Assembly: GCA_963729625.1 (NCBI GenBank)
Contig: CAVSOU010000011.1
Location: forward strand, 1 to 64,000
Source of the DNA: an uncultured bacterium
Lineage (GTDB): Bacteria; Chloroflexota; UBA5177; JANWHV01
DNA: 64,000 nt
Reading direction: 5' to 3'
Numbering within the stretch: the stretch's first letter is position 1; each line of letters opens with the position of its first letter. A program made the translations under genes and the position numbers. Positions 5,471 through 63,700 of the stretch are shown here, in pieces. The notes beneath the pieces are model-generated. The model was not told the DNA's origin and searched no databases. It saw nothing but the letters and a program-made list of their open reading frames with translations.

Positions 5471-5993
5471 TGGTGGAGCGTTCAGTCGCAATTGCCAGTT
5501 TCAGGCTGTGCCCCTCAGCTAGGTGAATATAGCCTCCATCTGCGGAAGGATGGCAGCGACGGGCCGACTGCGGTCGGGCGAGCGCGGCGGTTTTCATGCG
5601 CGGTGGTGGTCCGCGGACGATGGAAAACTAGGTGGAGTGCTAGGCCAGGCAGGATAACGCAGCGGCGAGTGGCCGGTTGTCCCAGGGGACCACGATGCCG
5701 CACTCCCCGTCCGAAGACCTGCCCGCGAGGGGTGCCAACGCCCAGGCCCGCCTTGCCGCCATCCGCGCCGACCAGGCGGGAATAGTGTCCGAGTTGGCGC
5801 AGGTTTCGCCGTACTACCATGCCTTCAGCGTGGTCAACGCCGTCTCTGGACATGCTATCCGCCGCATGATCATGCACTGGCATCGGGCCCCGGTGCAGGT
5901 CAACGCGATGGGCGCATGTGTCACACACACCATTCACGGCTGCGCAGAGTCTACGTGGGGCTCTGCACGCCCTGCACGCAATCGTGCGAGACT

Positions 5994-6599
5994 TTAGTAC
6001 CGCACCAGGACTTCCTCGGCGTGGACGCCGGCGGGAGAGGGGCCGAGGTCCAGCATGCCGTCACGGTAGTAGCCCTGTTGCGTCGGGATCGGCCACATCT
6101 CCGGATACGCGATGCCCCCCGCCGCCATCGGGTTGTGCACCGCGCGCACCATGCTCGGACCATAGAACGTCACCCACTCGTCGTAGACGTAGAAGTACCA
6201 CGAGGCCGGGCTGAAGTAGCCTTTGCCGTGCCCGGTCATGTAGCAGAGGCCGGTGAAGGCGGTGCTTCGCCAGAGCTGGGCATCGCATAGCGGACTGAGG
6301 TCGCTGCCGCTGCCTGCGAGCGTCGCCTCATACTGGAACGTGGCGCTGCCGGCAGCATCGCTCACGATATCCATGGTGATCGCGAGGGTGACGGCGCCGG
6401 GCGCATGGTCGGCCCGCCCGCAGACCAGACCGGGACCGTGGCCGGGCTCGCAGTGCCAGACGAGCTGGGCTACCCAGTGCCCGGCCAGCGATGGGCTGCC
6501 GATCGCCGCGCCTGCCTGCCGCGGCATCGCGGCGCACAGCATGGCCAGCGACAGGAATGCCGCGCACGTCGCGCGGAGCAAGATGTGTATCGCCTGCAT
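5994..6599 (-). CDS. secreted hypothetical protein
   Basis: GAGGAGG SD, signal peptide (FLSLAMLCAAMPRQAGA), four Cys in the mature part. Confidence 0.7.
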   Translation of the reverse strand: MQAIHILLRATCAAFLSLAMLCAAMPRQAGAAIGSPSLAGHWVAQLVWHCEPGHGPGLVCGRADHAPGAVTLAITMDIVSDAAGSATFQYEATLAGSGSDLSPLCDAQLWRSTAFTGLCYMTGHGKGYFSPASWYFYVYDEWVTFYGPSMVRAVHNPMAAGGIAYPEMWPIPTQQGYYRDGMLDLGPSPAGVHAEEVLVRY

Positions 6600-13844: not shown

Positions 13845-14428
13845 GGGTGAGGCCTCCTCTAGGCATTGGCAGCTGACACGCAGGCTGCGCGGCATGGTCA
13901 TACTGCAGTGTGCCATGACCTGGGACCTGTGTGCCACGTGCGTTGTTGGGTTTCGGTGTCACATTGAGCTGGTAGCCTGTCACCCGTTTTCGTTCTCGGC
14001 TGCCTGACACCGCGCTGGGTCGGGCTGCCCGCGCCCCGCCCGGTATCAGGCTGCCCCAACGCCGCCTACAACTGCTCGGCGTGCAAGCCGGCGTGACTTC
14101 CAAGGCAACTGCGCGAGACGACCGGTCGGTGGTTGGCGTCTGCATGGCCAGAAGGCGATAAGGATTGACCGCCTGCCAGCCGTCCGCCTGTCGGATCAAG
14201 CGGCAGCAGGCGTGCTTGCGGGAGATCGCGCCGACTATTCTGAACACACTCGCGTTTCACGAATTCACGGCGGGATTGTGTATTACGTGACGTCCTGCAA
14301 TTATCGAGGTGTGGATCTCGGAACGCAACGTTTCAGCACCCTGACACGGGTCGCCGCGAACCCGTACGTGACGTGCACTCCAGCGGCGCGCGGTGCGAGC
14401 CGCATATGTAGCGCCGACCCCGTCAAGG

Positions 14429-14860
14429 TCACGCCGCAAAGAGCATGTCTCGCCCATAGACCATCTGAATGAGATGCTGTGGCTGATTGCCTACCGGGTG
14501 CAGTTGCATCATCAGGTCGCTGCCCGCCACCGTGGCGCTCGCGACCGTGAACAGAACGTCCCGGTACGGCCTGTCCGTCATGCTGCTGAAGCCGTTCTGC
14601 GCCAGCGAGCGGCGCGGCGCCAGGTCCGCCTTCGCCTCCCTGGCGTTCAGGTAGTGCATAACCAGCAGCCCCACTGGTCGGCCACCCTGGTCCCGGTAGC
14701 CGATGCCAAGCTCCACGTACGGGTGGAGCTCCTTTAGCAGCGTGCCCGTCACCGAGTGCTCGTACCCCTCGGCGAGCAGCTTTGTGCTACTGAGATCCGG
14801 CGCACAGGCTCCAGCGCCAGGCATGATCACGGCTGCAGCCATCGAGCCCAGATGGCTGAT
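14429..14860 (-). pseudogene. C-terminal fragment of a hypothetical protein
   Basis: protein-like composition only in the 3-prime half of ORF 14429-15058; no clear start. Confidence 0.35.
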
Positions 14861-15029
14861 GGTGGCTGGCGTCCAGGGATCCAGGCCGCACGATGTGCCT
14901 GGTGCTTCGGTGCATGCGCACGCCAGTCCACGAGCCGAACGCCGCCCAGACGGTGTCCGCGTGCCTGGACTGCTCGCCCTCCTTCCGTCAGCTCGCGGCA
15001 GCACGCGGGCGGCAACGGCTGCGGTCGAG

Positions 15030-16811
15030 TTACTGGGAACACGTGGGGTTGCACGCACGCACGGTCAGCTTGTACTGTCCATAGGCCACCGCACCGGGGT
15101 GGTTGCGGGCGTAGGTCAGCGTTCTCGCAATCGTCGACACCTTTGCCTGGCGAGACACGGTAATGGGAAACTGCACCGGCTTGTTCGACATGGCCCGACC
15201 GAGCACCGTCAGTGCCGACACGTACGGCAGGTCAAATTTGACGACCTGCGGCACCAGAGTGAGCGGTGTGACCACCACGTAGGTGATATGCGCGACCGCG
15301 CCGTTCGTGGCGTCCGTGCCCTCGCCGGGTGGATTTATGGTGAGTGTCTGCCCGGTGATCTTGCCCTCGACCGGAAGACTGAAGTGGATCGGTGTGTCCG
15401 GCAGTACCGCCTTGTGAAAGAGCAGGGCACCGATTACCAGCTTCGGATAGAGCACACGCAGGGCGTTCTCGCTCACGGTGAAATCAGTGGCATCGCCCTC
15501 GAACTCGCCGGTCAGCTTGACCGGGCCGTGCCCTGTCGCGTCTTTGGAGTAGCGGAGCGTCAGCGTGCCCTGGAGACCCATGTTGTATTTCCACCACGCC
15601 GTGCCCTTGTCGCTTAGGGTGGCTGCCAGGCTTGCGGTGAACGGCCCGACGAATTGCTCGCAGTAGTAGGAGAACAGATCCTGCGAGCTTGCGGCGACCG
15701 CGCCCTTGGCAACCTTCAGGAGCCCATCGAAGAAACCAACCGGAGCATCGGCGGGGTCAATTTTCTCCAGTGCGTCGCGCAGCTTGGGATCGTAGGGCAG
15801 GTGGACGACTTCCTCTTGCCAGTTCAGACACTGGACATTGTCCTCGAGCCCGAGGCCGGTTCCTGCTTTGTATTTGTCTTCGAAGTCGGCCAAGGCATGC
15901 ATGGGGCCTTGGAGCTCCGTGATCAGGTCGACGAGCGCGGTGAGCTCCTTCTCCAGGTGAGCCACGTCGTCGCACCGCACCGTATCGGAGTCGTCTACGT
16001 GCATCTCGTCACGCAGCGTCGACTCCATGGCCTTGGCCTTATCGTTCCAGTCCCCGAGTTGCTTCAGCAGTCCTGCAAACTGCGCCTGGTCGCGAGGAAA
16101 GTCCTTGATCGTGCCGAGCACGTCCTGCAGCGAGTCGGAATACTTCTGGATCTGCTTGAGCGCCGTGGCCATCTGTGGCCGCAAATCGTCGAGCTTGGCA
16201 TGCAGATCCTCGGCAGCGGGCGAATCCGGCAGTGCCTGCAGCAGTCCTTCGACGTGATGCTCGATGTCCACGCCTAGCTTGCCCAGCTCCGGATCGGGAT
16301 CGGGCGGGCCGAAGCCGGGATCCACCTTGAACGTCGTAATACCGACGGCGCTGCCGGCCGGCGACTCGACGCGCACGTGATACGTACCAGCCTGGCCGGT
16401 GAGGTTGAAGCAGACCGTGAAGAACCCGTCGGTTTGACGGATCGGCGCGGATCCCGCCGCGGCGTTGGCTCCACTGGGCAGAGTCACGGTCAGCTTGATC
16501 GGGCGGTTCGCAGCGTCAACCGGTGCATTGCCCGATATGAGCACCATATCGCTTTGGCCGATGCCGGATTCGGGTGTGATTTTCAGCTGAAAACTGGCTG
16601 GAGGCGAAGCAAGGACGGCGCTCGAGGAATATACAGCCTGAATACGATCGACGATGGCAGGCGCAGCTCCGACGGGTGCAGACCGGGCGCCGGTCACGGT
16701 GGCCGCTGCCATGAGGCCCAGCACGATTACGGATCGCCGGATCGACGGCAGCATACCTGCCGGGTGCACAGGTCTCGCTGCCTTGCAGGATCTGTAGCGG
16801 TGCGTGCGCAT
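15030..16811 (-). CDS. large secreted hypothetical protein (Ig-like, helical/coiled-coil and beta-rich regions)
   Basis: purine-rich SD before ATG 16811, hydrophobic signal segment, typical GC3-rich codons. Confidence 0.7.
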   Translation of the reverse strand: MRTHRYRSCKAARPVHPAGMLPSIRRSVIVLGLMAAATVTGARSAPVGAAPAIVDRIQAVYSSSAVLASPPASFQLKITPESGIGQSDMVLISGNAPVDAANRPIKLTVTLPSGANAAAGSAPIRQTDGFFTVCFNLTGQAGTYHVRVESPAGSAVGITTFKVDPGFGPPDPDPELGKLGVDIEHHVEGLLQALPDSPAAEDLHAKLDDLRPQMATALKQIQKYSDSLQDVLGTIKDFPRDQAQFAGLLKQLGDWNDKAKAMESTLRDEMHVDDSDTVRCDDVAHLEKELTALVDLITELQGPMHALADFEDKYKAGTGLGLEDNVQCLNWQEEVVHLPYDPKLRDALEKIDPADAPVGFFDGLLKVAKGAVAASSQDLFSYYCEQFVGPFTASLAATLSDKGTAWWKYNMGLQGTLTLRYSKDATGHGPVKLTGEFEGDATDFTVSENALRVLYPKLVIGALLFHKAVLPDTPIHFSLPVEGKITGQTLTINPPGEGTDATNGAVAHITYVVVTPLTLVPQVVKFDLPYVSALTVLGRAMSNKPVQFPITVSRQAKVSTIARTLTYARNHPGAVAYGQYKLTVRACNPTCSQ

Positions 16812-55244: not shown

Positions 55245-56350
55245 TGCCGCCCGACGATGTGCCGGGAGCCGCCGTACTGCCCCCCACTGATTCAGACCCC
55301 GCGCCGTACACGGACGGAATCGTGCCGCGGAGCCTGACCCACGTTGCTTCAATCACGCCGGCCGGCAGCCGGTGGCAGACCTTCGTGCGGACATCGCCTG
55401 AACGAATACTTCAGAATCCCCAATCCGGCATGGTGCTGGCTCTGATTGTCTTCTCGGCTATCATCGCGTCGCGGAACTCGCTGTTCCTGTCTCACGCCAA
55501 TATCATCGAGATCCTCCGTTCGTCGGTGTACATCTTCATCATCGGTGTGGCCGCAACCTTCGTCTTCGTCTCCGGTGGGCTGGATCTATCGGTCGGCTCG
55601 GTCTTCGCCGTCGGGTCGATCGGCACAGGGTACATGCTCGTGCACGGCGTGCCTGCCGTGTTGGCGATCCTGATCGGCATAGGCTTCGGTGCGCTCACCG
55701 GCGTGATCAACGGCGTCATCATCGTCTATTTCGGCATTCCGCCTCTGATTACCACCCTCGGAATGCTCTACGTGGCCAGAGGCGTGATCACGGTGGTCAC
55801 CGGCGGCGTGCCTCTGTACCCGTTCCCGGACCAGTTCAACCAGATTGGCGAAGGCGATCTCTGGGGCATCCCGTACCTGGTGATCTATGCCGTGGTCATC
55901 GGCATTCTTGGTCATGTGATTCTGGAGTACACGCGTTTTGGCTTCGACGTGCGCGCGACGGGCGGCAACCACGAAGCAGCGCGGTCGACCGGCATCAGGG
56001 TGAACCGCGTCTCGATGACGGTCTATATCGCGAGCGGCATTTCCGCCAGCTTCGCGGGCATGCTTCTGGCAAGCCAGCTTGGTTCCGGACAGCCAAGTGT
56101 CGGTCAGGGCATGGAATTGCAGGTCATTGCCGGCGTGATCATCGGAGGTACAAGCCTCTTTGGCGGCATAGGCAGCATTATCGGGACCGCCCTCGGCGCC
56201 CTGCTTCTGGCCGTGATCACCGACGGGCTGGTCATGCTGAGCCTTGACCCCTCGTACCAGAACATCGTCGTCGGCGTGGTTATCGTGATCGCCGTGGGTC
56301 TGGACCGTTTGCGGCGGCTTCGGATGTGGAAGCGTGGAGTCACGCAGTAG
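55244..56350 (+). CDS. RbsC-like ABC permease
   Basis: GGLDLSVG, TRFG....GGN.EAA..TGI, IGGTSLFGG. Confidence 0.93.
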   Translation: MPPDDVPGAAVLPPTDSDPAPYTDGIVPRSLTHVASITPAGSRWQTFVRTSPERILQNPQSGMVLALIVFSAIIASRNSLFLSHANIIEILRSSVYIFIIGVAATFVFVSGGLDLSVGSVFAVGSIGTGYMLVHGVPAVLAILIGIGFGALTGVINGVIIVYFGIPPLITTLGMLYVARGVITVVTGGVPLYPFPDQFNQIGEGDLWGIPYLVIYAVVIGILGHVILEYTRFGFDVRATGGNHEAARSTGIRVNRVSMTVYIASGISASFAGMLLASQLGSGQPSVGQGMELQVIAGVIIGGTSLFGGIGSIIGTALGALLLAVITDGLVMLSLDPSYQNIVVGVVIVIAVGLDRLRRLRMWKRGVTQ

Positions 56351-57513
56351 CCTGGGCCTCACTGCCGCGGAGCACGCGGATTTCCAGCGACTGTTCTCGG
56401 CGCGCCTGGATCGGGTAAAGGCGACGACCGCTGATATGTTCGCCTTCAGGCAGCTCGATCGGCCGCCTTTCTGCGTGAACGGCGCCTGGTACTCGCTCTT
56501 CGGCCAGGATAGCCATACTGTCCCCGAAGCACTATTTCGAAGACCCTGCCGTCATGACGAGCTTCCAGGAGCGCTCGTACTACGAACAGGTCCGGGACGT
56601 GGCCGACGATTTTGTGCCGTATCTGGTGCCGTGGCTTGGCACTGCCGTGGTTGCATCGGCATTTGGCGGTCGTGTCGAGTTTCTGCCCAGGCAGGATCCT
56701 GCCACCGACCCGCGCTCCTACCCGGTCGCGACGCCGGAGGATGTCCGGCGGCTGCGAATTCCCGATCCCGAGATGGACGGCTTGATGCCGCGGGTGCTTC
56801 GCCTGCAACGCTACATGGTGGAGAACAGTTTCCTTCCGGTCGGCATAACCGATCTGCAAGGCCCGCTGACGACGGCGAATCAGCTCATGGGCTATGACCG
56901 TCTCATCTACCTGATGGCGGACGAGCCCCTCGCGGCGCATGAGCTCCTGGAGAAGATCACGGAGGCGCTCATACGCTGGGTAAAAGCGCAGAAGGCTGTC
57001 ATCGGCGAAACACTCACCGAGTGCATTGGCGATCAACTCGTCTATACGGGAAGTAACGCGGGCGTGTGGCTCGCCGACGACGACGCCGTGATCATGTCCC
57101 CGAAATACTATCGCGAGTTCGTCGTTCCTTATAACTCGCGATTGCTGCGGGAGTTCGGCGGCGGCTGCTTGCACTTCTGTGGCGCTGCGTGCCACCAGAC
57201 CGACAACTTCCTGGCCACCGATGGTCTTCGAGCGATCAACGTCTACACTTTGCACAATGCTCGCGCGTTTCGAGAGCTCAAGGAGAGGCTTGAGGGCCGG
57301 ATCGTGCTATTTGCCTGCGACTATGCGCCGCTTGAGCACCGGAGCTACTTCCGCGATCTGCTCGACGATCTCTCGCTCAGAGGCCTGGCAATTAACCTCC
57401 ACTATTCCCCCATTGTCGCCCTGTTGCCCGGTGGCAGATACGAAGCCGTGCAACGAGATATGCGTTCGGGTCGAGATGCGGTGTACACGTATTTGCATCG
57501 GCGCTTCGGCTGA
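56334..57513 (+). CDS. divergent URO-D superfamily protein (frameshift near 56535)
   Basis: DLQGPL, LADDDA..MSP..Y.EF..PY, LHFCG. Confidence 0.75.
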
Positions 57514-57514
57514 G

Positions 57515-58093
57515 CTACCCGGAACCGTCTCCCCTTTCCGACGCGCCGGCGCAGCGAAGTGCCCGCCGAACGCGCGCGCCGACCTCGTACAGGGCGTCTC
57601 TTGCTCGGTCCACCGAATCGGCGTAGTGCAGGAAGCCATGGATCATCCCCTCGTAGCGGATGAGCTGCACAGGCACGCCCGCATCGAGCAGTCGGTGCGC
57701 GTAGAGCTCTCCCTCATCGCGCAATGGGTCGAATTCGGACAAATTGCCGCCCGCACTGTCGCCGCCCACTGCGATGCAGCCGGCGTCTCCGCCCAACTCC
57801 GCGGCGTGCTGAGCGATCCATGTGGCAGCGGCGAAGCAATCGTTCACAGCCGCTGGAAACGGATTCTCCGGCGCCAGTCGATAGTCAACCGACACCGTGA
57901 GGCACCTAGCGCCGTTAGTCAGCGCGCGGCAGATGGCATCGTGCGTGTCCAGGTTGTTGAGTACCCAGCCACTTCCGTGGAAATACAGGAGCACGGGGAA
58001 GGGCGCGGTCCCATCCGGCGCATAGAGTCGGACCGGGATCGCCCCGGCAGGGCCCGGAATAGTGCTATTCTCGACACGCGCGACGCGCTCCAT
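57515..58093 (-). pseudogene. hormone-sensitive-lipase-type esterase with an internal in-frame deletion
   Basis: HGSGW, VDYRLAPE, GDSAGGNL joined directly to EFDPLRDEG...HGF. Confidence 0.8.
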
Positions 58094-58455
58094 TTCCTGC
58101 CTTCCTTTCCAACATGCTGCCCACGGGCAACTCGCGGCTAAGGCCCGCTGGCCTCCCTCGCGATGCTGCCATATATAGCGTAGCGAGGCGGTTGCCGTAT
58201 CGTGCCGGCGAAGATGCACCCCTGCGGCAGGTGCGCCTTCCCGGCCGCGGCGGCCGTATCCCACCGCACGTCCAGGCCCATAAGGCCACCCCGGCCGCGC
58301 ATCCGAAAAGGGTTAGCCGGCAGCGGCCGGATGGGCGCGGCAGCTTCACGCTACGCGATTGTCCCACCCGGGTGTCGATGCAGGATCTCTGGGTCGTACA
58401 TGGAGCGCACGTGTCGTCGAAACAGGGTGACACGAGCTAACCGGGGGCGTGGCCG

Positions 58456-61275
58456 CTAGCCCACGCTGTGCTGTTGTGCCAGGCTCGGCACAAGGCTTAG
58501 GAGCGTGCCCTGTTGGTCGACCAGCTGATCGGCAATGCAGCGCAGGAGCGCATCGACTACCTGAGGGTCCCATTGTAGCCCGCGGCCCTGGCGCAGGATA
58601 CCCGCCGCCTTGGCGACAGACATGCCGGGGCGATACGGTCGGTCGCTGGTCATCGCGTCGAAGCCGTCCGCTACCGCGAGCACCCGCGCCCCGAAGGGGA
58701 TGGCCAGCCCCTTGAGCCCATCCGGGTACCCCCTGCCATCCCATGCTTCGTGGTGGTGCCGCACAATCGTAATGCCGCGCGTGAAGTCCTGATACCCTGC
58801 CAACACCTCGGTTCCCCTCACCGGATGCGTCTTCATGAGCGCAAACTCGGCGGCGGTCAGCGCTCCGGGCTTGTTCAGAATCGCGTCAGGAATGGCGATC
58901 TTGCCGATGTCATGCACGCGCGCGGCCGAGAGAATCAACTCACAGTCGGGACCACTGAGCTTCATCTCCCGCAGGATTTGGCCACAGTACTCTTCAACGC
59001 GCCGCGAGTGGCCGCCGGTGCAGGGATCGCGCAGATCTACCGTCTCGGCCATACTCTCTAGCAGCCGGTGGGTGGAGTCCTGCACGTCGTGCAAGTGCTT
59101 CGCTGCCTTGTAGACCAATGCCCCGGGTACCACAAGAAGCACCAATGCCCATTCCGCGCGCTGGGAGACCAGTACCCCAAGGAAACCGACCAGGTACTGT
59201 ATGCCGTCGGGCACGGCGGTGTCGCCGGCAAGTGCACGCAGCACGCGCAGCGGCCGCTCCCCCGTCATGGGAGCCACAATCAGCGGTAGGGTGACGAAAT
59301 CGCCGGCCCACAGCACCAGGGCCGATGCTGCAAGCATGAGTAGCGCGGCGTCTCCCGGAGCGGGTACGTGGGCCACCAGATTGCCCAAGAGCACGACGAG
59401 CACCCACCGGGCGACAGCCGTGGCAATATCACTCGGATAGAGCTTGCGCTGCTCGCGCACCGATACTTCCCCGAGCAAGGTGCCGAACCCGGCTGCAACC
59501 AGAGCAAGCGGCAGGGGCAGTAACGCGGCGATTAGGAAGTACGCCATCGTTGAGAGTTGCACCTTGACGTGGAGACGAATGTGGATAGGGTACTGGTAGG
59601 CCACGACGACCGCGGCGGCGAGTGCCATCGCTTCCAACGTCACGCCCAGCGGTGCCGATCCAAGCTGGACCGCCGGCGACTGTAGCGCCGCGACCGTTGC
59701 CGCCACGGCCAGGAGCATAGTGGCGAGCGCCATCCCAGGCTGGGGCAACAGAGGCGACAACCGCTCCCAAATGGGCACTGCCCTCGCGCGGCCTGCTGGT
59801 CGTTTGTGGCCAGTGTCGCCGGCCAGACTCGCGGGCGCCTGATCACCGCCTTCTGCCTGTAGTTGCCGTGCGGCTGCCGACGTCGGAGTCGCTATCGCTG
59901 CGAATGCGGCAGCGCCCGCGGGTATTGCCAGCGGGGCGCGATCATGCACCTCGCCGTGCGCCTCAGCTGGGACCGGCATCGGCATCGTCGCGGGCCCGGC
60001 GTGCTGTGCCGGCTCCTCCTGCCTGCCCTCGTCCGTTGTCGCCGCGACCGCCTTTCCCGCCGGCTGCGGGATCCGGCGGTCCCACGAGAGATCAGATGCG
60101 CGCACCACGGTATTGCGTCCGCGGGTCTTGGCCTCGTAGACCGCCATATCGGCGGCAAAGATCAGCTCCTCCGAGGTGCTCCCGTCCTGCGGATAGCAGG
60201 CCACACCCAGGCTCATGGTCACCCTGATCGGTTCGGCAGACGTCGCGACCGGAAAGCGCGCGTCGGCGACGGCCCGCCTCAGGCGCTCGGCCAGAGTCTC
60301 GGCCACATAGGGATCGGCCTCAGGCGTGACCAAGAGGAACTCCTCACCGCCGAAGCGGCCGCCGATGTCGTACTCACGCATAGTCTGGCGGATGACCTGG
60401 CCGATGCCGGCCAGGACCGCATCGCCGGCAAGGTGCCCATAGCAGTTGTTGACATTGCGCAGCAGGTCGAGGTCGGCCATGATCACGGCGAGAGGCCGCT
60501 CAAAGCGGCTGGCGCGGTTGAGCTCCGCGCTGAACAGGGTTTTGAAGTGCCCAGCGTTGGCCAGTCCGGTCTTGCTGTCGATGGCGGCCAGGTGCTGGAG
60601 CTGCGGGATCATCAATGCCCGGTACATCAGCACGAGCGGGGTGAGGGCAGGCACGATGAAGATTGGATGGAGCTGCCAGAGCGTGGCAACCACCAAGCCC
60701 AGGCAGGCCAGGACCAGGTCGGTCAACGTACTCGAAAAGTCGAGCATCTCGGAGTCGTGCCAGCTCACGCCGCGGGCCAGGACCAGGGCAAGACCCAGAA
60801 GAACCCGGTTGAGGAGCACGTAGCTGAGCGCCGCTACCAGCCCCCTGATTGCCGGTGCGGCCGCGGAATCCGAACCACCTAAGGCGGTTAGCGCCACATA
60901 CAGCCAGTAGGCGCTCAAGCCGGTGAAACCGGTCATGGCGATGTTGAAGGGCTGGAGGTACCAGGCGCGCAGGTGCGGGCTGCGCTGCCAGCGCTCCTTG
61001 CCCCACTCGATCAGATGGGGAATTGCCACCAACAGCACAATCAGGAAAGGAGGCAGGAGCAGCACGCCGGCGAAGAAGAAGATTGGGCTGGTGTAGAACA
61101 GGACGTGGTTGGGCGCTTCCGCCTTGAATAGCTGCGCGAGCGTCGCCAGCACGGTCAGCGCCGCGAACGTACCCCAGGCCGCTGGAGTCGGGGCGAAGCG
61201 CAGCACGGCAAGGGTACTGAGCAGCAGGCCGGAGCCGAGTACGCCGCCCACGTAGGCGCGGGCGCCAATCGACAT
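58456..61275 (-). CDS. membrane protein with TM module - GGDEF - linker - TM module - HD-GYP
   Basis: DLD..R.VNN.YGHLAGD, REYD I-site, GGEEF; HDIGK, HHE.WDG.GYP, DAMTSDRPYR; two multi-TM blocks. Confidence 0.92.
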   Translation of the reverse strand: MSIGARAYVGGVLGSGLLLSTLAVLRFAPTPAAWGTFAALTVLATLAQLFKAEAPNHVLFYTSPIFFFAGVLLLPPFLIVLLVAIPHLIEWGKERWQRSPHLRAWYLQPFNIAMTGFTGLSAYWLYVALTALGGSDSAAAPAIRGLVAALSYVLLNRVLLGLALVLARGVSWHDSEMLDFSSTLTDLVLACLGLVVATLWQLHPIFIVPALTPLVLMYRALMIPQLQHLAAIDSKTGLANAGHFKTLFSAELNRASRFERPLAVIMADLDLLRNVNNCYGHLAGDAVLAGIGQVIRQTMREYDIGGRFGGEEFLLVTPEADPYVAETLAERLRRAVADARFPVATSAEPIRVTMSLGVACYPQDGSTSEELIFAADMAVYEAKTRGRNTVVRASDLSWDRRIPQPAGKAVAATTDEGRQEEPAQHAGPATMPMPVPAEAHGEVHDRAPLAIPAGAAAFAAIATPTSAAARQLQAEGGDQAPASLAGDTGHKRPAGRARAVPIWERLSPLLPQPGMALATMLLAVAATVAALQSPAVQLGSAPLGVTLEAMALAAAVVVAYQYPIHIRLHVKVQLSTMAYFLIAALLPLPLALVAAGFGTLLGEVSVREQRKLYPSDIATAVARWVLVVLLGNLVAHVPAPGDAALLMLAASALVLWAGDFVTLPLIVAPMTGERPLRVLRALAGDTAVPDGIQYLVGFLGVLVSQRAEWALVLLVVPGALVYKAAKHLHDVQDSTHRLLESMAETVDLRDPCTGGHSRRVEEYCGQILREMKLSGPDCELILSAARVHDIGKIAIPDAILNKPGALTAAEFALMKTHPVRGTEVLAGYQDFTRGITIVRHHHEAWDGRGYPDGLKGLAIPFGARVLAVADGFDAMTSDRPYRPGMSVAKAAGILRQGRGLQWDPQVVDALLRCIADQLVDQQGTLLSLVPSLAQQHSVG

Positions 61276-61509
61276 CGCTGCCCGCCCTTCACTCGCCAAG
61301 CGGCGCCCTCTGCGCCGCGCTCAGCACTTGCTAGTAGACTAGCATTGCTGCACGCGGGAGTCGCTCCCCCAGTTGGGAGGTGTCCCGCGGCCAAATCTGC
61401 CGTTAGCCACTCGCTGACTGGTCGGACCGTCGCCGATCACTCAGAGCTGGATGCCCTGCGACGCGAGGAAGATCGAGGGCGGGCACGACCCTGACACCCG
61501 TGCCCACGG

Positions 61510-63044
61510 TCAGCTGCCCCAGTAGTCGCTGCCCCAGTTCACCGAGCCCCAATTGACGCTGCCCCAGTTCACCGAGCCCCAGTTGACACTGCCCCAGTTC
61601 ACCGAACCCCAGTTCACGCTGCCCCAGGTGACAGGCTGGCTGCCGGTCCACAGCAGCTGGCTGGCAGCTATCCCGGTGTTTGATGTGGCAGTCGCTGTGC
61701 CGTGCACCGCGGCGTAAGCATCCACCTCGCCCGCACCCGTGCCCGCGCCCACATAGTGAGCCGTAGCCTTCAGGCGATATTTGACTTGGTCGGGATTGAG
61801 TGCCGGGTTGGACTGCAGCAAGAGCGCCACCACGCCGGACACCACGGGAGCCGCCATGGACGTGCCCGACATCCGCAGGTAGATGCTGCCGCTAGGCCCA
61901 TTGACCACGTTGGCCGGGTGCGCAACACAGATGACGCAGTTCACATTCCCGGACAAGCTCACCAGGTTGCTTCCAGGCGCCACCACATCCGGCTTGCTGA
62001 ATCCGTCTGTGGTGGTCCCGTACATGGAGTACGTGGCCAGCGTATGGTTGGCCAGATTGGTCGAACCGTGATCGTCCACCGCGCCCACGGTGATCACGAA
62101 GGGATCGTTAGCAGGCGCGTAGACGCCCCCGCTGTTCCCCGCGGAGACCACGACGACGATGCCGTTGAACCAGAGTATCTCGACGGCAGCGTCGATCGGG
62201 TCCACGTTGTAGGAATCCGGAGCTGTGCTGTTGAGCGAGAGGTTCACGACGCGGATATTGTAGGTCTGCTTGTGGGCGAGCACCCACTGCAAGCCCTGGA
62301 CGACGTTCGACGCGGTGCTCGCGCCCTGGTCGTCGCTGACCTTCACATTGATGATGTTGGCGCTCGGCGCTATCCCGACATAGGCGCCGTTTGATCGACT
62401 CGCCGTTGCCGGCAATGATGCCGGCGACGTGGTCGCCGTGGCCATACATGTCCGTGACCGACGTGTTGGGGCCGCTGTTGAACGCGACGTTGGCCACCAA
62501 CCGGCTGACACCCAACGGCGTGTACAGGTCTTGCGTCGGATTGACGCCGCTGTCGACGACCGCGACGCCGACGCCCTGCCCCTGCAGATACGCAGGCCCT
62601 TCATTCCAGACCCGTGAGGCGCCCACATCCTGAGGATTCGAGACTCAGCAGATTCGCGGTGTTGATGCACTGCGTACAGGAGCTGGCATGCACGACCGGT
62701 GCGTCGGTCGAGACCCACCGTACCGATGCTGCGCCCGCCAGCTTGGGCAGCATTCGTGCCCGTATGGTCGCGCTGAAGCCGTTGATGATCGGCAGCAGTA
62801 CTCCGACCTTGCCGCCTAGCGCGTGCACCAGCTCTTGTGCGCTGGTCGTTGAGCCCGTCGCCTGCACGATGACTGTCACCGTGGCCCCAGGCCGGGCCGC
62901 AGCTAGTTGCAGCAGGACAGGCTGCGCCTTGAGCGACTGAGCACGCGCTACGGTCGCGCTCGCCGGTGGTACCGCGAGGATCGCGACGAGCGCCAGGGCA
63001 GGCAGCCAGCGCCACTTGTTGGACCAGTGACGCGTCGTCTCCAT
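61510..63044 (-). CDS. secreted S8 subtilisin-like protease with C-terminal Trp pentapeptide repeats (frameshifts near 62630 and 62395)
   Basis: signal peptide, I9-like propeptide, VVDSG, GHGDHVAG, SAGN, SGTSMA. Confidence 0.92.
61513..61632 (-). repeat. 15-bp coding tandem repeat, VTW-(GSVNW)6-GSDYW-GS
   Basis: the six GSVNW units differ only at synonymous positions. Confidence 0.95.
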
Positions 63045-63187
63045 GATAGTAATCCCTCCAAATTTCACGATAACCTTACCGGCTCTGCCGGAATCAGTGC
63101 ACCAGGACCGGCGACTCTGTCGACGCGCCTCCAAATGGGTGCATCCGCAGCTTGCATGACCGGTCTCCGTCCTCCGCCACGCCACGC

Positions 63188-63700
63188 CTACGATCCCCAG
63201 CTCACGTTTGGCTTGACGGTCGAGGCGCTGCCGATAACGGTGAGAATGGGCTGGTTGCTCATTCCTGCCACCTGGACTTGCGTGCTGCCGAGCCAGGCAT
63301 TGCCGGATTCGTGGACGGTCACCGGCACACTGCCACCCGTCGTGGTGACCGTGGTGATGGTTGACACAGTCTGGTCCGTGCGGTCGGCGGTGTAGGAGTA
63401 CGTTTCTTTCCCCTGCAGCGCGCCGCCGGTAGCGACATATGTCGTCACCACGGTGCCCACGGGGCCGTGGACAGCATAAGAGATACTCTGAACTTGCGTG
63501 CTGCTTGCGCTCACGTCGACGCCCACATTGATCTGCGAGGTCGCGCCCGCTCCTGAGGCGTCCGCGATCCAGATGATCGGTCCGGCGCGACTTCCTACGG
63601 CGGCGCGCACTTCCGGCGCGTGTGCCCAGCCGCCGGCCAGAACTCCGGCTAGCACCGTCACGCCCATCAGGGCACGAACCCCACGTACAACCTTCGTCAT
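63188..63700 (-). CDS. secreted 170-aa Thr/Val/Ser-rich protein ending KPNVSWGS
   Basis: AAAGGGAG SD, signal peptide ending VRA-A, beta-rich body. Confidence 0.8.
   Translation of the reverse strand: MTKVVRGVRALMGVTVLAGVLAGGWAHAPEVRAAVGSRAGPIIWIADASGAGATSQINVGVDVSASSTQVQSISYAVHGPVGTVVTTYVATGGALQGKETYSYTADRTDQTVSTITTVTTTGGSVPVTVHESGNAWLGSTQVQVAGMSNQPILTVIGSASTVKPNVSWGS

Follow-up and report, generated by a model that had tools for sequence, protein, structure and literature searches.

Why should two neighboring and apparently exported proteins of an uncultured Chloroflexota bacterium end in the same tryptophan motif, next to a membrane enzyme of cyclic di-GMP (c-di-GMP) metabolism? The question arises from the window that we have analyzed, which comprises the first 64 kb of contig C11 in a genome of 5.4 Mb and 21 contigs. 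The cassette in question contains three co-oriented genes on the minus strand: an open reading frame (ORF) designated ORF1 (63188..63700), encoding 170 residues from an ATG with a ribosome-binding site; a gene for a protease of the S8 family (61510..63044), encoding a signal peptide, a propeptide-like region and the catalytic Asp, His and Ser; and the gene for a putative receptor enzyme (58456..61275). An original prediction, made from the sequence alone, proposed that the protease releases short Trp peptides from its own tail and from ORF1, and that the membrane modules of the third protein sense them to switch c-di-GMP. Gene order and orientation are just as it described, and the two ends can be read directly: ORF1 finishes with KPNVSWGS and a stop codon, and the terminal part of the protease gene (61510..61632) encodes VTW(GSVNW)6GSDYWGS, that is VTWGS, six VNWGS, DYWGS and a stop. 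Because WGS ends are so rare in the genome (27 of 216,508 stop-to-stop frames) and are kept in the relatives of ORF1, its paralogs included, the shared ending is not a matter of chance.

The answer that we favor, giving it an even chance of being right, is that the protease cuts after small residues and releases peptides of the VNWGS and VSWGS type to the first half of the receptor, TM1-GGDEF, and that the beta domain of ORF1 acts upon the second half, TM2w-HD-GYP. The cassette is real, conserved and apparently undescribed; no published description of it was found in the literature searched, which did not cover subscription journals.

Trp-pentapeptide tails are present in 119 of the 120 best-listed homologs of the protease (3,890 sequences reach E 1e-60 among 8,000 scored). 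The repeated unit is uniform within each protein and variable between proteins, with SVNWN (26), SASWG (20), SVNWG (17) and SVSWN (14) besides others; the runs contain from 5 to 17 Trp, with a mode of 8 (66 of 119), and 85 of the 119 place their last Trp third from the C-terminus, as do ORF1 and the S8 protein of the window, a position of the ComX type. In the window tail, synonymous codons differ between units. The closest solved proteases are S8A subtilases of the Tk-SP/AprX-like group (3afg, profile E 2e-70), which share the propeptide and the Asp-His-Ser triad. In our family, however, a Trp-pentapeptide array replaces their folded C-terminal extension, and the residue aligned to Gly166 of subtilisin E is Tyr or Phe (99 of 117 homologs; Tyr in the window). 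Gly166 forms the floor of the S1 pocket of subtilisin and shapes its substrate preference (PMC3378952); from the bulky residue in its place we therefore infer that the protease would prefer small residues at P1. ORF1 homologs mostly carry Asn before their last five residues. One protease of the same clade (L147:6695-8341, genome G278) has a longer and different tail unit (WNSSQWSTVQWYRGL type), and a TM1 receptor was not found in its genome.

The expectation that such proteases adjoin genes for c-di-GMP enzymes with many transmembrane segments is borne out in both directions. An alignment query gave 602 genomic matches, after a scan with a single protein as query had given none, and the best 80 of these define 70 loci, biased to close relatives; TM1 is present in 47 of the 70, or of the 63 that have at least 1.5 kb of downstream DNA. 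The reverse search with TM1, conducted on 301 genomes of the phylum, produced 18 strong matches (under 1e-40) in 12 genomes: 14 adjoin a Trp-tailed protease and two more a WGS-ending ORF1 without the protease, in genome G001 and in the third copy of the cassette within the present genome. A metagenome scan returned two short contigs only; on a metagenome contig (L009), ORF1 is followed by the start of an S8 gene. When five genomes were searched for tails by DNA pattern, the matches were scattered, occurred in the controls too, and formed no array.

The commonest receptor in the S8 loci has the architecture TM1-GGDEF-TM2p-HD-GYP, and that of the window is TM1-GGDEF-linker-TM2w-HD-GYP, 939 residues long from the ATG at 61275, a more likely start than the TTG at 61299 because receptor paralogs start there. 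Its two enzyme domains, originally described as intact, retain their motifs: the GGDEF domain (60112..60588; Pfam GGDEF, 1e-40) has GGEEF and, five residues upstream of it, an inhibitory RxxD site, and the HD-GYP phosphodiesterase domain (58558..59052; Pfam HD_5, 1e-37) has HxxRV, HDIGK and HHExxDGxGYP. TM1 (60592..61275), the candidate sensor of Trp peptides, is modeled with a predicted local distance difference test (pLDDT) score of 94 and combines long helices with two short ones and a beta hairpin. In a fold search of 48,161 chains, all 15 rows with Z of at least 8 are S-components of energy-coupling factor (ECF) transporters (Z 9.0-14.9), the next unrelated row lying at Z 7.7. The match to RibU (5kbw) has a Z of 14.9, with a root mean square deviation of 2.7 Å over 159 residues, and that to NikM/CbiM (4m5c) a Z of 14.7 over 188 residues; NikM/CbiM 5x3x, BioY, FolT and ThiT are alike in fold. 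TM1 therefore models as an ECF S-component. It differs from those proteins in being 6-18% identical to them and in its fusion to signaling enzymes, and its role would be that of a sensor rather than a transporter; EcfT and EcfA are absent among the cassette genes, the rest of the genome not having been searched for them.

TM1 and TM2p are homologous (98.8%), and TM2w (59074..59757) is a more distant relative of TM1 (hhalign 60% probability, E 9e-5). The Pfam family MASE9 (PF20972) is matched weakly, at E up to 0.05, by 16 of 59 rows of TM1 and 10 of 34 of TM2p, and it has no match in this genome, nor with the TM1 of the window; the nearest Atlas clusters of TM1 are MASE9 too, with a score of 0.85 that serves as a lead only. 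Since the window modules miss the Pfam cut-off and some TM1 and TM2p relatives match, we call the modules MASE9-like. In the description of MASE9 enzymes by Galperin and Chou (10.1101/2021.11.05.467447), a polytopic module with a short intramembrane hairpin and conserved aromatic and Asn residues is fused to HD-GYP, GGDEF or EAL domains; its ligand is given as unknown and presumed to bind within the membrane, and the main text of that description names no peptidase, subtilisin or peptide partner. The window receptor differs from these enzymes in having two modules in one chain, both below the Pfam cut-off.

The WGS tail of ORF1 fits a source of Trp peptides, as first proposed, yet the protein is not a simple precursor: it combines a signal peptide (residues ~1-33), a predicted all-beta domain (~35-160) and a short disordered tail ending NVSWGS. 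The model has about nine strands and a disordered last decamer (pLDDT 68, under 50 in the tail). ORF1 has no match in Pfam or NCBIfam and no usable match in the Atlas; its domain gave no clear match in the fold search (best Z 5.2) and none with Foldseek at E 0.001, results that establish neither novelty nor absence. A profile search nevertheless gathers a family of 379 clusters, secreted and without a family name, with the consensus CRxDP after the signal peptide, in which Cys is changed to Ser in the subfamily of the window. Among 149 listed clusters, CxxDP follows the signal in 132 and a Trp motif forms the end in three, all of which have Ser for Cys, as does ORF1; in the first ORF1 alignment, 10 of 11 rows end in WG[SL]. 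As the family is mostly without the Trp tail, it follows that this lineage added the tail to a secreted domain that already existed. For three different homologs ending AVNWGS, LVNWGS and NVNWGS (P0006, P0007 and P0009), the longest contig measures 4,129 bases in each case, and they probably stand in tandem on a single contig.

The beta domain of ORF1 pairs with TM2w independently of the protease and of the Trp motif. The beta protein occurs at 35 places in 16 of the 301 genomes, nearly all of this class; its gene lies within 4 kb of TM2w at 17 of these places (within 700 bases at 14), and 16 of 20 strong TM2w matches (under 1e-40) have a beta gene next door. Typically the beta gene is followed by one for TM2w-HD-GYP, with protease and Trp motif absent; the pairs, drawn from kin that are not independent, represent three families of the class and occur in either gene orientation. 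The same three loci, among the 70 with S8 genes, hold both the beta protein and TM2w. The original view of the ligand needs to be qualified in this respect: its layout of Trp peptide and receptor recurs, and it missed the second candidate ligand, the beta domain read by TM2w.

The cassette occurs three times in the genome, in the same order, and the three ORF1 genes detected by alignment search all end in WG[SL]. The second copy (contig C7, locus L001) has an ORF1 ending HANANWGS, an insertion sequence (IS)-like remnant, an intact S8 protein of 526 residues with a tail of ASWGS units plus DYWG, and a receptor of the form TM1-GGDEF-TM2p-GGDEF-EAL; the remnant (L001:11855-12781) is a broken transposase-like gene separating ORF1 from the protease. 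In the third copy (C7, L014), a three-unit remnant of the tail precedes an ORF1 ending NTNAGWGS, a secreted peptide of 60-70 residues ending SAGWGS, and a TM1-GGDEF-TM2w-HD-GYP receptor. Comparing tail with ORF1 in each of the two full cassettes, one finds agreement two positions ahead of Trp (V/V, A/A) and an exchange at the position directly ahead of it (N/S, S/N). Directly behind the third receptor, L014:10153-13945 encodes a family 2 glycosyltransferase with an MshE-type c-di-GMP-binding domain (NCBIfam NF053729, over cut-off), likely a polysaccharide output under c-di-GMP control, together with a polytopic membrane protein. Because of this glycosyltransferase, the third copy suggests that one output of the system is matrix polysaccharide. 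Contig C10 carries a near copy of the upstream region of the third cassette and of its small peptide, standing alone. The duplicated upstream region measures ~120 bases (L014:5647-5886, C7 ~500.6-501.7 kb; L015:8900-9290, C10 ~420.9-421.3 kb); after it comes, on C7, the tail remnant, with its last Trp codon turned to a stop, and on C10 a possible ORF of 10 codons ending AGWGS. Near-identical secreted peptides of 60-70 residues then follow in both, with a CxxCH motif and the end SAGWGS, and the C10 copy has no adjoining TM1 receptor.

Do other small proteins carry the motif? Eleven ORFs of 38-70 residues with a hydrophobic or signal-like stretch lie within 200 bases of the protease gene in 10 of the 70 loci, ending SVSWN, TVSWN, SVGWN, SFSWN, QVNWN or NVNWN ([SQNT][VF]xWN); ORFs scoring at least 11 number 16 on the cassette strand and five on the opposite strand, and 13 small partner ORFs have no NCBIfam model over cut-off. 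The residue after Trp is that of the neighboring tail in all 11. Comparable proteins accompany distant relatives of the receptor: a hydrophobic mini-ORF ending in Trp plus at most one residue precedes six of the eight distant MASE9-like genes that have enough upstream DNA (two further loci are too short), in comparison with four of 281 controls, or 72 of 281 when hydrophobicity is not required. Two of the six belong to one genus; of the remaining two genes, one has a Trp-tailed protease and the other a non-hydrophobic Trp-ended ORF. Unannotated-looking hydrophobic ORFs of 27-36 residues in L132, L133, L134, L135, L141 and L149 (e.g. L150:1123-1212) end like AGAGQKWF or AGGAGFKGW and lie directly upstream of MASE9-like HD-GYP or kinase genes.

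Tail and receptor also vary together. In the 25 loci with all domains, distances between tail units correlate with TM1 distances (r 0.61, partial 0.31) more than with distances between protease domains (r 0.33, partial 0.07), and TM1 also surpasses TM2p, GGDEF and HD-GYP; the correlation persists after removal of an outlier and collapse of one clade. The partial Mantel tests ignore kinship, and a warning on the method comes from one link, between the pre-Trp residue and the HD domain, which vanished on collapsing one clade. Asn follows Trp in 16 of 18 loci of receptor clade B and in none of 15 of clade A; in the lineage of the window, the hairpin is of the clade-A type and Gly follows Trp. Columns specific to a clade concentrate at this hairpin, at TM1 residues 50-62.

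Taken together in our favored reading, these elements would work as follows. ORF1 and the protease would be exported via their signal peptides, and the protease would then cleave after Ser, Asn, Thr or Ala, not after Trp, so that its own tail would yield six VNWGS and DYWGS, and ORF1 would yield VSWGS. In all these peptides Trp would be third from the free C-terminus, in the register of the natural chain ends. TM1 would bind the W-x-x end in an outward-open pocket and set the activity of GGDEF, while the beta domain of ORF1, freed or intact, would be a second input, read by TM2w and controlling HD-GYP. The window receptor could accordingly be a fusion of TM1-GGDEF, of Trp-tailed partners, with TM2w-HD-GYP, of the beta protein, and ORF1 the corresponding fusion of both ligands; what the signal conveys would be cell density or the activity of the protease. 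Predicting a complex between TM1 and residues 135-170 of ORF1 gave values (score 0.01, mark 0.32) that weigh neither way.

Among known systems, ComP is a polytopic membrane sensor that reads ComX from outside the cell. The peptides of ComQXPA in Bacillus and of StheQ/StheX in Chloroflexota similarly have Trp second or third from the C-terminus (as described in PMC4008528, PMC13731918 and 10.64898/2026.08.29.745113), and StheX is not known to have a receptor or role. The present cassette differs from ComQXPA in its output domains, GGDEF and HD-GYP, in lacking a kinase and response regulator pair, and in precursors that carry signal peptides. ComX-like prenylation was rejected, as no ComQ-type prenyltransferase gene is adjacent to any cassette; the genome has three polyprenyl-synthase matches, situated either on other contigs or ~50 kb away from the Trp genes, and no Trp peptide adjoins the weak one. 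The Rap-Phr/RRNPPA systems of Bacillota offer another likeness, for their exported precursors, some of them duplicated, are described as cut outside the cell to pentapeptides (PMC3601957; PMC11343458), and a cited title names subtilisin, Epr and Vpr among the extracellular proteases. Those peptides, however, enter the cell and are sensed by a cytoplasmic tetratricopeptide repeat (TPR) protein; here the reader would be the membrane module of an enzyme of c-di-GMP metabolism, and it is the protease that bears the repeats. No TPR receptor is found among the window cassette genes or their direct neighbors; a TPR-like ATPase lies ~2 kb past the receptor of the second copy. The cassette would thus operate in the manner of Gram-positive peptide signaling, and, having neither TPR receptor nor prenyltransferase nor kinase among its genes, it belongs to neither system.

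A broader proposition, which we offer tentatively and regard as doubtful, is that MASE9-like modules are S-component-fold receptors for secreted polypeptides, one branch reading W-x-x C-termini that a protease has cut off its own tail and another a folded secreted beta protein; this lineage would have joined both receptors in one enzyme that makes and breaks c-di-GMP, and both ligands in one precursor. The cut in ORF1 would then operate a two-input, protease-gated quorum switch on c-di-GMP, a single cleavage rebalancing synthesis versus degradation. Our data give the orphan sensor MASE9, which ranges from Thermotoga to Streptomyces, exact candidate ligands in VNWGS, VSWGS, DYWGS and a secreted domain of 125 residues, and the S-component fold shows where to seek the binding pocket. 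If this view of the ligands is right, a transporter fold would have turned into a peptide receptor and a protease would carry its own signal cassette; peptide signaling would reach c-di-GMP without kinase or transcription factor, and a route of cell-cell signaling would be available to Chloroflexota, whose one Trp-peptide pair found is StheQ/StheX.

Several observations weigh against our favored reading. TM1 is missing from 16 of the 63 S8 loci having enough downstream DNA, the odd-tailed protease of G278 has no TM1, and two of the 18 strong TM1 receptors (G070 and G210) have no Trp partner within 15 kb. Genome G001 has ORF1 and receptor, the protease not having been found in it, and the third copy here retains just a remnant of the tail; these two cases imply that the dedicated protease is dispensable or that others stand in. 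As to the second input, 18 of the 35 beta genes have no TM2w within 4 kb (five of them at contig ends), and the second copy (L001) pairs ORF1 with a TM2p receptor instead of TM2w. The small secreted ORFs anticipated beside the protease are not seen in 60 of the 70 S8 loci, so that this expectation holds in part, and the co-variation anticipated between tail and partner likewise: it holds for the residue after Trp, whereas the residue before Trp differs in eight of the 11 small ORFs, matching in three, and differs also in both full cassettes here. The tail/TM1 correlation corresponds to a single deep split of the receptor tree, and we therefore count it as consistent with the favored reading and not as proof; independent pairs are too few for significance, and a matching clade of the proteases is not rejected by the approximately unbiased (AU) test (p 0.075).

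One further difficulty concerns the window itself, where the protease gene is frameshifted in the assembly. The secreted S8 protease originally described is recognizable by its catalytic motifs (VDSG, HGDH and GTSM) and its tail, and it is not one open frame: one extra base at 62636..62642 and another at 62395..62401 spread it over three frames, with Asp and His in the middle piece and Ser in the last. Is this copy a true pseudogene, with a cassette working via ORF1 alone or via the protease of the intact paralog? We find this distinctly less probable than an assembly error, towards which we lean with moderate confidence. The two insertions are separate and neither is within a homopolymer, the lineage repeatedly loses this protease (third copy, G001), and the IS-like remnant stands between ORF1 and S8 in the second copy, all of which would suit decay. 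Nevertheless, in-frame stops are absent and each piece is 52-77% identical to intact family members (no intact full-length relative exceeds 77%), Pfam PF00082 matching two of the pieces. Moreover, frame breaks relative to paralogs number 10 in the 34 kb covered of the first 75 kb of C11 and seven in 376 kb of the rest, a density ~16 times higher at this contig end, as in poorly polished ends of long-read assemblies, and small contigs are also dense; assembly error is favored for this reason. No RNA run is listed as containing the sequence; the listed read pieces identical to the window, from two DNA runs with small shares, cover parts of all three genes and span neither frameshift. Methylation errors at TCGA were rejected as the cause of both frameshifts, since TCGA is near 13 of 95 detected breaks against a background of 13%, in a screen that itself missed the two S8 breaks. 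Further signs of error or decay at the contig end are a URO-D-like gene (56334-57513) frameshifted near 56524 and a convergent alpha/beta hydrolase gene (57515-58264) whose middle part is apparently missing.

An alternative for the whole family, which we judge unlikely, is that TM1 reads the W-x-x end while still attached to the protease, to ORF1 or to membrane mini-proteins at the cell surface, so as to anchor, sequester or count tailed proteins, with proteolysis merely trimming or destroying the signal. The cases of receptor and ORF1 without protease, G001 and the third copy, would then be natural, ORF1 has one motif that already lies at a free C-terminus, and many of the partners consist of one hydrophobic helix that ends in Trp. 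Four loci (L062, L069, L026 and L067) moreover have stand-alone TM1 genes between tandem proteases; these genes, of ~235 residues and devoid of enzyme domain, alternate with Trp-tailed proteases there and in L028 (e.g. L062:2409-3110 and 5835-6536) and could be anchors or, equally well, sinks for the peptide. Conversely, six to ten identical internal units would add little unless excised, and almost every partner is a protease whose S1 pocket is altered. Quite improbable is a structural tail, folding as a pentapeptide beta-helix or a stacking or matrix-binding segment beside a TM1 that senses an unrelated small molecule, both genes being neighbors through one c-di-GMP-controlled surface program: the tail does match Pfam Pentapeptide_2 (PF01469) over cut-off at E 1e-8, S-component relatives bind riboflavin, biotin, folate, thiamin or Ni/Co, and there are proteases without TM1 and TM1 without partners, yet the single units on ORF1, the 60-residue peptide and the mini-ORFs cannot form a helix and are kept beside the same module, the Trp runs fix no coil number despite their mode, and the residue after Trp follows the receptor clade.

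Regarding the surroundings of the cassettes, 73 kb that include the three cassettes and the fourth site gave no Rfam match at gathering score, and hence no c-di-GMP riboswitch; neither a sigma-70 promoter-like site nor an excess of terminators was found. The third cassette is flanked by two genes (L014:1615-5181 and 14064-16706) in which a LacI-type sugar-binding domain is joined to PAS-GGDEF-EAL or to a histidine kinase. Finally, Tad/Flp-like pilus genes adjoin a protease-receptor cassette in one genome (L004, G008) and a pair of beta protein and TM2w in another (L103, G018).

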